A stretch of 15,429 bases of DNA from positions 1 through 15,429 of IMG/VR virus record IMGVR_UViG_3300001477_000032; one strand, 5' to 3'. Shown piece after piece: positions 12,566-15,429 of the stretch. Source of the stretch: a virus. The notes beneath the pieces were generated by a model that made no database searches, was not told the DNA's origin, and saw only the letters and a list, made by a program, of their open reading frames with translations. Position numbers and translations under genes: made by a program. The first letter of the stretch is position 1. Each line of letters opens with the position of its first letter.

Positions 12566-13252
12566 ATGATAAATTAGATTAAAGATATGCAAGAAAAATT
12601 AAAATTTTTAGGTTTTGTAGACCCTATGTATTATACTAATGAAAAAAATTTTATAACAGGAGATTGTTTTAATTATGATACTATACAAGCATTAAAACAT
12701 TTTCAATAGGCTAAGGGTTTAAAAGCTGATGGTATATATAGACCTGAAACAGCATTAGCATTAAGCAAAGATTATTTATTAGCCCTTAACTCAGATTTTA
12801 ATGTAACTGTAGATGAATTTCTAGAAAATGCAAAAATTGTTGCAAAAGAGAATAAAGAAAATAATTTTTCTTATGGAGATGCATCTTGTTTTCCTGGAGT
12901 TTATCCATTCGAAAAAATAACCTCTTGTGATAGATATGTTACACAAGTCTTATATAGAAGTGGTTTTAAAAATTGCGGCAACCGCGGTTTTAATACATTA
13001 AAAGATTATTTATAGCAAATTAAGGCTCAAAAAATATATAGAAAAGATGAATTAAAAAAAGGTGATATTGTATTTGTAATTGGTCATGTCTTTATTCTTG
13101 GAAACAAAATTTCTGAAACTGAATATGAAAGATATGATGCTGGTTCAACAGCACGGATTCAATTAACAGGAAAGTATTCTAAATATGCAAGTCAACCTTT
13201 TATTGAAGATATAGATCTTTTTATTTATGGTTATAGACTTCCATTTAAATGA
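12566..13252 (+). CDS. endolysin 1: PG_binding_1 domain plus CHAP/NlpC-P60-like cysteine peptidase domain; three in-frame TAG sense codons
   Basis: AAGGA at 12554..12558, 7-nt spacer, ATG 12566. Codon-by-codon translation gives a single frame ending at TGA 13250 with no TAA. TAG codons at 12575, 12707 and 13013. ALKHFQ-x-AKGLKADGIY is a peptidoglycan-binding repeat. SYGDASC ... TSCDRYV ... GDIVFVIGHVFILGN gives the Cys and His boxes of a CHAP-like peptidase. Confidence 0.75.
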
Positions 13253-13267
13253 AAAAGGAGAATTTAT

Positions 13268-15429
13268 ATGACATAGAAATTATTTATTTAGAAAGTTAAA
13301 ACTCCATGTATAAACGCAGTAAATATAATTGGCGGTTATTTACCTAGTGTATTAATTGGACAAATGTGTTTATAGACTGGATATGGAGTTGGATATAATT
13401 GTGAAGTATTAATGCAGTGGAATAATTTATTAGGTATGAAAACCTAGTTATTAAATGATACTTGGAAATCAAATTATTGGGATGGTAGATCTGCAACTAA
13501 AAAAACTCCAGAGTATTATGGTTATCATACAACCATTACTGATTCTTTTAGAGTTTATAATAGTATTCAATAGTGCGCTTGTGACTATCTACAGTTTATG
13601 CGTGACGCAAAATATTCTAAAAATGGAAGCTATAAATATAGAGATGTTTTAACAATTAAAGATCCAACAGCTTTAATTACTCAAGTATCTAAACGCGGAT
13701 ATGCAACAGATCCAGCATATATTACTTCTGTAATGAGTATTATAAAAAAACATAATTTAACTCAATATGATAATCAAAAGGAGGTTAATGAGCCAATGAC
13801 ATTAAGATAGGCATTAGCAAAACTCGGCGTTAATTTAATTAATAGAATTAGTTATAATAGAGGACAAGTTCCTGCGCATAATGCAAATACACATCAATAT
13901 TTTGCTATTCATTATCTTGGGGTAAATGGATAGAACCCTGATTTATATGGTGGCGGATATGGTGGTCATTTTTATATAAGCAAAGATGGTAGATGCTATC
14001 AAGCTGCAGAAGTAACGGATAAACTTTGGCATGTAGGAGCTTCTTCAGGATTTTCATATATACATCCATATGCAAGAAATAGTAATACAATAGGAGTCGA
14101 ATGTGGGACATACACCGCTTCTGGAAGAAATAATGATGATGAAACTTGGTATTTTACAGAAACTACTCAAGTAACTGCCGCCAAGCTTGCAGCAGCTGTC
14201 TTAACAGTATATAACATCCCATTAAGTCATTTATTAAGACATGGGGATATTACTACAAAGAATTGTCCTTCTCCGCTAAAGCGTGATCAAGGAAAAGGTA
14301 GTAATTGGACTTGGGATAAATTTAAATCAGAAACAGAAAAATATATAAAACAATTAAAAGGAACATCTACTTTTGTTAAAACTCTTTCTTTAGGCGATAA
14401 TGGACAAGAAGTAAAAACACTACAAGAAAACTTATTATTATTAGGTTTTGTTAACTGTTCTTATTACAGTGGACAAAGAAATTTTGCCGATGGTAGTTTT
14501 GGACAAAACACATTAACTGCTTTAAAACATTTCCAATAGGCTAAAGGACTTTAGGTAGATGGTGTATATGGACCAAATACCGCCGCAGCATTAGATAAAG
14601 AAGTTATAGAAGTTAAAAAATCTAAATTAAATGTTACTCAAAAACAATTTTTAGAAAATGCAAAATTAATTGCACAAGAAAATAAAAAGAATGGTTTTTC
14701 TTATGGCAGCTCTGCATGTCTACCTTCTGTATATTCAAAAGATAAAGTCACTTCATGTGATAGATATGTTAATCAAGTTCTTTATAAATCAGGATTAAAA
14801 AATGTTGGAAATCGTGCTGTTGAATCTTTAAGTTCATATCTTGAAACAACAGTAAAAGCAGTTAGAATTAATGATATAAATCAAATTGCCGCAGGTGATA
14901 TAGTTTTCTTATCTGGCCATGTATTTATTGTTGGAAATAAAAAAGATAATAATAATTATGAAAGATACGATGCTGGTTCTGCAGATCGTATTAAATTACA
15001 AAACCAATATTCTAAATATAATTCTCAACCTTTCATTGAGCCTATTAATGGTTTTAAATATGCTTTAAGATTACCTTTTGTTCAGTAGAGTCCTACAATT
15101 TTAAAACAAGGTGATGAAGGTTCTTTTGTTAAAATACTACAACAAAAACTTATGAAACTTGGTTACTATATTGATCAAGCTGGGGCTGACGGTAAATTTG
15201 GACAAAATACTATGAAAGCTGTAAAACATTTCCAAACTGACCATAATTTATAGGTCGATGGAATCTGTGGACCGCTTACTCAAACAAAACTAAATGCTAT
15301 TTATGAAAAAATAAAATAGTATGATACTCCTTTATCTCACAATGATTTAATAAAATGGAAAACTTGTACTACAACAGATGAACTTAATCTAAGAAATGGT
15401 TCTTCAGTAGCGCATGAAATTATTACAGT
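13268..15429 (+). CDS. endolysin 2 (partial, at least 720 aa): GH73 glucosaminidase, then amidase_2, then PG_binding_1, CHAP-like peptidase, PG_binding_1 and the start of an SH3b-like domain; 12 in-frame TAG sense codons
   Basis: GGAG at 13257..13260, 7-nt spacer, ATG 13268. I translated all 720 codons by hand. There are zero TAA or TGA codons. TAG codons at 13274, 13289, 13373, 13445, 13571, 13808, 13931, 14537, 14552, 15086, 15251 and 15317. The GH73 region VLIGQMCL-x-TGYGVG...NNLLGMK...FRVYNSI...CDYLQFM...GYATDPAYITSV is collinear with FlgJ/AcmA ILAQAALESGWG...NLFGVK...FRVYSSY...SDY..LL...GYATDPHYA. The amidase_2 (PGRP) region is HQYFAIHYLGVNG...GGHFYISKDGRCYQAAEVTDKLWHVGA...NSNTIGVECGTY...LSHLLRHGDITTKNCPSP. 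PG-binding repeats are ALKHFQ-x-AKGL-x-VDGVYGP and AVKHFQTDHNL-x-VDGICGP. The CHAP-like module is SSAC...TSCDRYV...GDIVFLSGHVFIVGN. The C-terminal ELNLRNGSSVAHEII looks like the start of an SH3b domain. Confidence 0.8.

Follow-up and report, generated by a model that had tools for sequence, protein, structure and literature searches.

The DNA analysed here is a 15,429-nt stretch of a viral genome (positions 1 to 15,429 of IMG/VR record IMGVR_UViG_3300001477_000032; hereafter the window), and its source is probably a 125 kb rumen phage that switches its genetic code during infection, in which the amber codon TAG is read as sense in the tape measure, holin and two lysin genes. Judged from sequence comparison, the ~125–140 kb rumen phage lineage to which it belongs has quite probably reassigned UAG to glutamate through a CUA suppressor derived from tRNA-Glu. 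The window corresponds to positions 3587–19015 of L011, which is itself positions 64,776–87,277 of the 124,598-bp ENA scaffold_240 (ERZ28612970), and 22.5 kb of this own-contig sequence around the window was examined. The G+C content of the window is ~30%, and a phage gene layout emerges once TAG is taken as a sense codon.

TAG is a sense codon in the late genes

The TAG-bearing genes, their in-frame TAG codons and the contrast set were as follows (aa, amino acids).

1..2722, minus strand: tape measure protein, first 907 codons of 3028 aa; the part inside the window has 16 in-frame TAGs, beginning at codon 21.
2909..12137, plus strand: cassette free of TAG apart from flotillin codon 3, the contrast set (0 TAG versus 193 GAA/GAG codons).
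3733..5289, plus strand: flotillin/SPFH (Band_7) protein, 518 aa; sole TAG at 3739–3741 (codon 3), the other 61 Glu codons being GAA/GAG.
12232..12504, plus strand: holin (Phage_holin_1), 90 aa; sole TAG at 12481–12483 (codon 84).
12566..13252, plus strand: lysin 1, 228 aa, PG_binding_1 plus an uncharacterised Cys/His domain; stop TGA.
12575–12577 (codon 4), 12707–12709 (codon 48) and 13013–13015 (codon 150), plus strand: in-frame TAGs of lysin 1, read in the sequence.
13268..15429, plus strand: lysin 2, 757 aa in the source contig and running past the window end; GH73 glucosaminidase, Amidase_2, PG_binding_1, Cys/His module, PG_binding_1 and SH3.
13274–13276 (codon 3), 13289–13291 (codon 8) and 13373–13375 (codon 36, the GH73 catalytic Glu position), plus strand: in-frame TAGs of lysin 2, which has 12 inside the window.

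Across the 22.5 kb, the tape measure gene contains 46 TAGs in 2102 codons, lysin 2 contains 13, lysin 1 contains 3, and the holin and flotillin genes contain one each, while no TAG was found in the other 14 genes of the same 22.5 kb, those for RNase H, GyrB and GyrA included. The nine TAG-free genes for which codons were counted showed 0 TAG versus 193 GAA/GAG codons, and in the tape measure and lysin genes TAG made up 19–35% of the Glu-class codons. The complete genes of the window end with TAA (12) or TGA (1) and never with TAG, and the GH73, Amidase_2, PG_binding_1, PhageMin_Tail and Phage_holin_1 domain matches all run across TAGs. By its sequence, the phage is a member of the known class of amber-recoded phages with gated late genes. 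A bias of TAG toward late and lysis genes, together with recoding as a means of lysis regulation, was already proposed by Borges et al. (10.1101/2021.08.26.457843). The sense use of TAG in late genes (tape measure, tail, baseplate and lysins) and its absence elsewhere, apart from flotillin, fit this published idea.

TAG most probably encodes glutamate

The meaning of TAG was judged from an alignment of seven recoded lysins and 120 standard-code homologues, in which columns with at least 85% Glu were treated as conserved-Glu columns. TAG occurred in 5 of the 6 conserved-Glu columns (27 of 42 cells) and in none of the 5 conserved-Gln (0 of 35 cells), 8 conserved-Asp or 5 conserved-Lys columns of this alignment. 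The composition of lysin 2 pointed the same way: residues 1–365 comprise 10 E, 13 Q and 7 TAG, and the homologues have 21.2 ± 2.4 E (minimum 14) and 11.8 ± 3.2 Q in the same columns, so that the protein is short of Glu and normal in Gln, which counts against TAG being glutamine.

The tape measure protein was compared with 66 homologues of low Gln/Glu ratio, found with a TAG-free stretch as the search query; likely translations by genetic code 15 (TAG = glutamine) were left out to avoid a Gln bias. The summed log-odds over the TAG columns were +14.7 for E, +3.1 for Q and −2.4 for K, and TAG occupied 7 of 60 conserved-Glu cells and 0 of 54 conserved-Gln cells. Pooling both proteins gave TAG in 34 of 102 conserved-Glu cells versus 0 of 89 conserved-Gln cells, and the location of TAG at conserved glutamines of standard-code homologues, which characterises genetic code 15, was not found. 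In pairs of orthologous codons, TAG faced GAA/GAG 64 times and CAA/CAG 24 times, and the RNase H motif GN#LADALA of one phage (# marking TAG) corresponds to GNELADALA in the window phage. Aspartate was also considered and ruled out, with TAG in 0 of 56 and 1 of 60 conserved-Asp cells.

The catalytic centre of lysin 2 provided a further case. Lysin 2 matches Pfam GH73 (E = 4e-20) and Amidase_2 (E = 6e-13), and its motif GQMCL-TAG-TGYG aligns with AQAALETGWG of FlgJ (PDB 2zyc) if TAG is Glu; the motif (A/G)Q..LE(S/T)G(W/Y)G with the catalytic Glu, typical of GH73 plus Amidase_2 endolysins, is then present in lysin 2. The chain of PDB 3k3t has Ala at the residue aligned with codon 36. The catalytic Glu at codon 36 is also TAG in the separate L006–L008 lineage. 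Taken together, the two protein families and the tRNA described below, which are independent lines of evidence, indicate that TAG most probably encodes glutamate in this lineage.

A CUA suppressor with the acceptor end of tRNA-Glu

A tRNA with anticodon CTA was identified at L066 3698–3771 (ARAGORN; Rfam tRNA, 62.8 bits), on a contig that also carries an 87%-identical lysin 2 and a 98%-identical flotillin. On this sister contig it is the one CUA tRNA of an array of 22 tRNAs located directly upstream of the baseplate operon and co-oriented with it, and the same array includes phage tRNA-Glu(TTC) and tRNA-Gln(TTG). Searches of the window and its immediate relatives gave no tRNA and no other Rfam family, and the 22.5 kb of the window's own contig contained no CUA tRNA. 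The anticodon arm of the suppressor occurs in four IMG/VR contigs, whose sample numbers (3300021xxx/3300031xxx) resemble those of the other relatives, and in none of 185,579 GTDB representative genomes.

Suppressors were typed by tabulating their structural features position by position. C1-G72 and A73 are common to the CUA tRNAs of L066, L091, L096 and L072, and G2.U71 is present in all but one of them; C1-G72, G2.U71 and A73 form the acceptor end of the L093 tRNA-Glu. In L096 the CUA tRNA also shares the D stem GTCT/GGAC with tRNA-Glu and has a variable loop of 4 nt, and that of L072 does so in part. All six tRNA-Gln genes of the phage family that were examined carry U1-A72 or A1-U72 plus G73. 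GlnRS uses a weak 1-72 pair and G73 as identity elements, and the amidotransferase GatCAB requires U1-A72. The four CUA tRNAs lack the tRNA-Gln features (the weak 1-72 pair U1-A72 and G73), and because GatCAB needs U1-A72, a tRNA with C1-G72, once glutamylated, would be predicted to remain Glu-tRNA.

The CUA tRNAs of the human-derived L074 (6099–6174) and L076 (6072–6147), contigs with 7000000xxx sample numbers, were Gln-like, with U1.U72, G73, an encoded CCA and a D arm resembling that of a family tRNA-Gln. Two kinds of amber suppressor, Glu-like and Gln-like, seem by these features to coexist in one broad phage group.

Other unusual RNAs were noted in related contigs. L091 encodes a tRNA with anticodon TTA (ochre type) at 5325–5399; in relatives of 41–43% G+C (L075, L078–L080, L082, L084, L087 and L089; for example L075 2299–2372) ARAGORN reported a four-base anticodon 'taaa'; and genes for transfer-messenger RNA lie within the tRNA arrays of L026 (6010–6343) and L096 (7189–7466).

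Start-proximal TAG codons in the lysin and flotillin genes

An earlier note on this DNA had pointed out that both lysin genes and the flotillin gene place TAG next to the start codon, and this was confirmed. Lysin 1 opens with ATG (12566), ATA, AAT and TAG at codon 4; lysin 2 opens with ATG (13268), ACA and TAG at codon 3, with a further TAG at codon 8; and flotillin opens with ATG (3733), ATT and TAG at codon 3. Three of the five TAG-bearing genes in the window have TAG in codons 3–4. All three starts are preceded by a Shine-Dalgarno motif at a spacing of 6–7 nt, that of flotillin being AAGGAG upstream of ATG 3733 and those of the lysins as follows.

12553..12558, plus strand: Shine-Dalgarno AAAGGA of lysin 1, 7 nt 5′ of ATG 12566.
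13255..13260, plus strand: Shine-Dalgarno AAGGAG of lysin 2, 7 nt 5′ of ATG 13268.

The N-terminus of the lysin 2 family reads M-T-E-K-E-W-V-(D/E). Homologues have Glu opposite codon 3 of lysin 2 in 104 of 119 cases and Asp/Glu opposite codon 8 in 71 of 119, and because ~35% of the Glu-class codons of this gene are TAG, two TAGs at the two N-terminal acidic positions are unremarkable (probability about 0.12). These TAGs would also add nothing to a translational lock, because the catalytic Glu is itself TAG. In the distant recoded lysins of L006–L008 and L055, Glu 3, 5 and 8 are encoded by GAA, and the first TAG is that of the catalytic Glu. No exact match to the lysin 2 start was found in IMG/VR. 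Just past the window, at L011 19122–19127, lysin 2 ends with L-T-TAG-TAA, where a TAG adjoins the real stop; the sister phages do not have it.

Lysin 1 proved to be a duplicate, as a gene of its own, of the module in the middle of lysin 2 (PG_binding_1 plus Cys/His), with 65% identity to this module in the sister phage and 55% in its own genome, and it is not present in the closest relatives. In M1206, L050 and L056, the TAG that matches codon 4 of lysin 1 position for position lies inside lysin 2, at about codon 385 ('GE#VKKLQ'). Since the aligned TAG is internal in the sister lysin 2, the TAG beside the lysin 1 start appears to be an accident of the point at which the module was cut. Only the PG-binding domain of lysin 1 has family matches, and the C-terminal Cys/His module that it has in common with lysin 2 matches no family; by domain content, the label 'endolysin' for lysin 1 is plausible.

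Proposed model and observations that weigh against it

In the model that we favour, TAG would serve as a sense codon in the late genes, namely those for the tape measure, tail, baseplate, the tail end of the holin and both lysins, and would be absent from early and accessory genes. Its reader would most probably be a phage tRNA(CUA) whose acceptor end has the features of the family's tRNA-Glu and not those of tRNA-Gln. Until this tRNA has built up, every TAG-containing message would be terminated by host RF1, and the lysins would then end at codon 3 or 4. Unsuppressed lysins would be inactive anyway, the catalytic Glu of the glucosaminidase being TAG, and in that sense lysis would be amber-gated. 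The early TAGs would be ordinary Glu codons. Two would fall on ancestral acidic positions in the Glu-rich N-terminal part of lysin 2, a third would stem from an internal site carried along as a lysin module split off into its own gene, and the fourth is the lone TAG of flotillin. As a whole, a code-switching phage in which TAG means Glu and the early TAGs are incidental has a good probability of being the best explanation; charging by GluRS, the timing of expression and the gating itself are steps that we infer.

Several observations weigh against this explanation. With regard to decoding, TAG exchanges between very close relatives (75–80% identical codons) with CAA/CAG at 5–6 sites per lysin and with GAA at 1, and ordinary exchanges between GAA/GAG and CAA/CAG number 0 in the same relatives, a pattern expected of a Gln synonym and not fully explained. 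One tape measure TAG column is mostly Gln in the homologues (35 of 59). The CUA tRNA was found in a close relative and not in the 22.5 kb examined of the window's own contig, and overall similarity assigns the suppressor tRNA no clear nearest isotype, only that of L096 being nearest to tRNA-Glu. With regard to position, the excess of early TAGs in the window is nominally significant (P about 0.003): codons 2–10 of the five TAG-bearing genes contain 4 TAGs versus 0.59 expected under a uniform distribution (Poisson P = 0.003) and versus 1.09 expected when TAG is shuffled among Glu-class codons (P = 0.0036). The lysin 2 TAGs at codons 3 and 8 and the flotillin TAG at codon 3 are retained in 4–6 related contigs, and among single-TAG genes, 3 of 12 groups have their TAG in codons 2–10 versus 0.62 expected; one of these three groups has an alternative start.

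The exchange sites of TAG with CAA/CAG all fall in variable columns where Glu is common among the homologues, and because one C-to-T transition turns CAG into TAG and the genome is AT-rich, these exchanges are explicable by a cheap route from Gln to Glu.

Start-adjacent placement as a lock on lysis

The earlier note had interpreted the early TAGs as a lock, selected to lie just after the start of the lysis genes and of flotillin so that unsuppressed ribosomes drop off at once and leave no fragment. The general amber gate on lysis being already a published hypothesis, the new element of that proposal is the position of the TAGs. The window excess, the lysin 2 TAGs at codons 3 and 8 common to the window, M1206, L050, L051 and L056, the flotillin TAG retained in four contigs, and the early position in 3 of 12 lone-TAG groups all speak for such selection. 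Against it, the window-level test is post hoc, the hypothesis having been drawn from the same data, and rests on 3–4 mutational events; the contigs that retain the early sites are close relatives; the lysin 1 TAG derives from an internal site; and the lysin 2 TAGs stand at conserved acidic positions of a gene with 35% TAG among its Glu-class codons and a TAG at the catalytic Glu. The distant recoded lysins have GAA at Glu 3, 5 and 8, and the TAG of the holin is C-terminal.

The enrichment for which the note had proposed a survey of related recoded phages did not appear. When 90 TAG-bearing genes from ~20 recoded loci were collapsed into 54 orthologue groups, 10 groups had TAG in codons 2–10 versus 6.95 expected (P = 0.14), and nine independent recoded loci showed 11 TAGs in these codons versus 7.96 expected (P = 0.18). 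In the sister phage, of which 59 kb was assembled (contig positions 80.5–139.8 kb), the first TAGs of the tail, fibre and baseplate genes lie at codons 20, 27, 41, 52, 60, 73, 80, 98, 116 and 122, and codons 2–10 contain 3 TAGs, at the same flotillin and lysin 2 sites, versus ~2.3 expected. Two of the three early-TAG genes have simpler historical explanations. A lock reading of codon position lacks support beyond the window, and the start-adjacent position is, on present sequence comparisons, not convincingly beyond chance and ancestry.

Flotillin is the best case for the weak residual position signal in single-TAG genes: its M-I-TAG start is common to four closely related contigs and occurs in no other flotillin homologue. 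The position of this lone TAG may be due to chance, and it is less likely that single UAGs near the start, as at flotillin codon 3 and in comparable genes, are selected as per-gene on/off switches. Overall, we regard the lock as unlikely. The proposed amber gate is thus supported in part: what stands of it is that both lysins, and likewise the tape measure, tail and baseplate genes, need TAG to be read and that the late-gene pattern is as published; start-adjacent placement as a designed feature is unsupported. Lysis is amber-dependent here, and the evidence does not show that the start-adjacent codon position is an adaptation. The corollary that the gate would make leaky transcription from a prophage harmless found no footing, with no integrase or repressor seen in ~59 kb of the relative.

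A further early TAG was observed in a ~158-aa membrane protein encoded beside the tRNA array, in which codon 6 is TAG (M-I-A-L-L-#-H-Y-S-L) in four phages (L067 1080, L071 10542, L073 7433 and L091 10547); the sister-phage orthologue begins at the equivalent of codon 15.

Alternative decodings and start sites

Ambiguous decoding would yield a mixture of Glu and Gln, either through a non-discriminating GluRS combined with partial amidation by GatCAB or through two suppressor species. It would reconcile the presence of TAG at invariant Glu sites with the frequent exchange of TAG and CAA in close relatives, and the related phages L074 and L076 do carry Gln-like CUA tRNAs. We consider this reading very unlikely, given the single CUA tRNA in the 22-tRNA array of the relative, the C1-G72 pair that should escape amidation by the established GatCAB rules, and the conserved-Gln columns without TAG; a Glu/Gln mixture at a catalytic Glu would also waste enzyme.

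Decoding of TAG as glutamine (genetic code 15) has precedent in its favour, since every amber-recoded phage described so far uses it, along with the alternation of TAG with CAA/CAG between close relatives and the mostly-Gln tape measure column; the deposited gene calls read TAG as sense and may well have used code 15. In the tail-fibre repeat NPVQN, one TAG falls at the Gln position, though the instances are too few to carry weight. The pooled alignments of the two proteins, with TAG at conserved Glu and never at conserved Gln, the TAG at the GH73 catalytic Glu in two separate lineages, a composition short of Glu and not of Gln, and a suppressor without the weak 1-72 pair and G73 of all six family tRNA-Gln render this reading still less probable than the mixed one.

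It is extremely improbable that the early TAGs are artefacts of wrong starts, with true starts downstream and the TAGs placed in 5′ leaders or tiny upstream open reading frames: an in-frame ATG exists at codon 8 of lysin 1 (12587), and in one other gene family the orthologue of a relative begins downstream of the early TAG, yet Shine-Dalgarno motifs precede the upstream ATGs only. The codon-8 ATG of lysin 1 lies 9 nt past the TAG and has no such motif, and the PG_binding_1 match begins at residue 4, with the aligned lysin 2 module extending further upstream. No alternative canonical start in lysin 2 or flotillin retains the GH73 domain or the N-terminal membrane helix, respectively. The 120 standard-code homologues open with M-T/S-E-K-E at the start position of lysin 2 and match M-T-#-K residue by residue, and the deposited gene calls of the source scaffold use the same three start codons with TAG read through. 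On the Shine-Dalgarno sites, the lack of a usable downstream start and the homologue N-termini, mis-called starts were rejected for lysin 2 and flotillin.

Relation to known systems and implications

The phage resembles the crAss-like, Lak, Garnet/Topaz and phAss-1 phages (Borges et al. 10.1101/2021.08.26.457843; Peters et al. PMC9523058; Babkin et al. PMC10607447) in carrying in-frame TAG in its structural and lysis genes but not in the early ones, in not using TAG as a stop, in carrying a tRNA(CUA) in a tRNA array, and in an AT-rich genome of 125–140 kb, and the logic of lysis gating is the hypothesis published for those phages. It differs from them in that TAG is located at conserved Glu and never at conserved Gln, and in a suppressor that is tRNA-Glu-like. 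In phages with a code unlike their host's, Borges et al. (10.1101/2021.08.26.457843) state that no changes other than TAG to Gln and TGA to Trp were seen; the phAss-1, jumbo-phage and annotation papers assume TAG to be Gln, and the Lak paper shows TAG occasionally aligned with E. Among the papers found, none reports a phage in which TAG chiefly means Glu.

UAG means Glu in peritrich ciliates and in Blastocrithidia, always together with UAA (NCBI tables 30 and 31; PMC12153298, PMC5304391). The likeness lies in the reading of UAG as Glu by a suppressor of tRNA-Glu type. Those codes are eukaryotic and genome-wide and reassign UAA along with UAG, whereas in the phage the joint reassignment is absent: TAA stays the main stop (12 of the 13 complete window genes), the change is confined to late genes, and the host presumably uses the standard code.

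If the Glu reading of TAG in these phages is correct, no stop codon had previously been seen to pass to Glu outside eukaryotes. Gene callers and databases have the assumption built in that all amber-recoded phages use one code (TAG = Gln); current code-15 translations would put Gln at catalytic Glu residues, and such phage proteins would be mistranslated in public resources. It would also mean that viral capture of stop codons is not limited to 'susceptible' synthetases (GlnRS, TrpRS) and that a CUA tRNA recognised by GluRS occurs naturally, and orthogonal suppression of Glu type would gain a natural lead in the tRNA/synthetase pair.

Among the tape measure matches in the protein library (P0121–P0270), where homologues of ~2,800–3,000 aa are abundant, Gln/Glu ratios run without a break between 0.46 and 1.63. 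The ratios of up to 1.6 that many of them show are as expected from code-15 translation; the homologues of high ratio look like such translations, with Gln where Glu belongs if they use the same code.

The holin and its flanking hairpins

The lone TAG of the holin is retained in three phages, though the neighbouring codons differ synonymously. Unsuppressed, the holin would be an 83-aa protein without its last 7 residues, the charged tail E-KPKKDI, and suppression would toggle between two C-terminal forms. Dual-start holin/antiholin timing devices and the lambda bar minigenes are candidate parallels. As in the former, holin length would be set by a translational choice, 83 or 90 aa according to TAG suppression. 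The unsuppressed AUG-AUA-(AAU)-stop and AUG-ACA-stop of the lysins resemble minigenes of 2–3 codons, a likeness of sequence only.

Two terminator-like hairpins flank the holin gene.

12179–12212, plus strand: terminator-like hairpin upstream of the holin.
12511..12536, plus strand: terminator-like hairpin between the holin and lysin 1, with an 11 bp stem and a T run.

Around the holin there are 3 hairpins in 1.3 kb versus 0.3 expected, and the hairpin at 12511–12536 also sits 5′ of lysin 2 in relatives. With hairpins on either side of the holin, the lysins may be transcribed apart from it.

Other features of the window

A close relative was not found among 50,697 GenBank phage records, searched by megablast with the window and by tblastn with GyrB. 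Lysin homologues point to Lachnospiraceae, a clue to the host. At the lysis end of the plus strand, the Phage_holin_1 holin is followed by the PG_binding_1 protein (lysin 1) and then by the multidomain lysin 2. The cassette at 2909–12137 encodes, besides flotillin, a metallophosphatase, an RlaP-like nucleotidyltransferase, an 833-aa protein resembling major vault protein, an RNA ligase, an AAA_33 kinase, a second metallophosphatase and small open reading frames. The RlaP-like nucleotidyltransferase, the RNA ligase (with a PHA02142 OB domain), the AAA_33 kinase and the two metallophosphatases form an RNA-repair-like set, and the 833-aa protein matches eukaryotic major vault protein in its shoulder and repeat domains. 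The tape measure (window 1–2722, minus strand; L011 1–6308), which is 3028 aa long in the deposited calls, has matches to Hint/intein-type domains.

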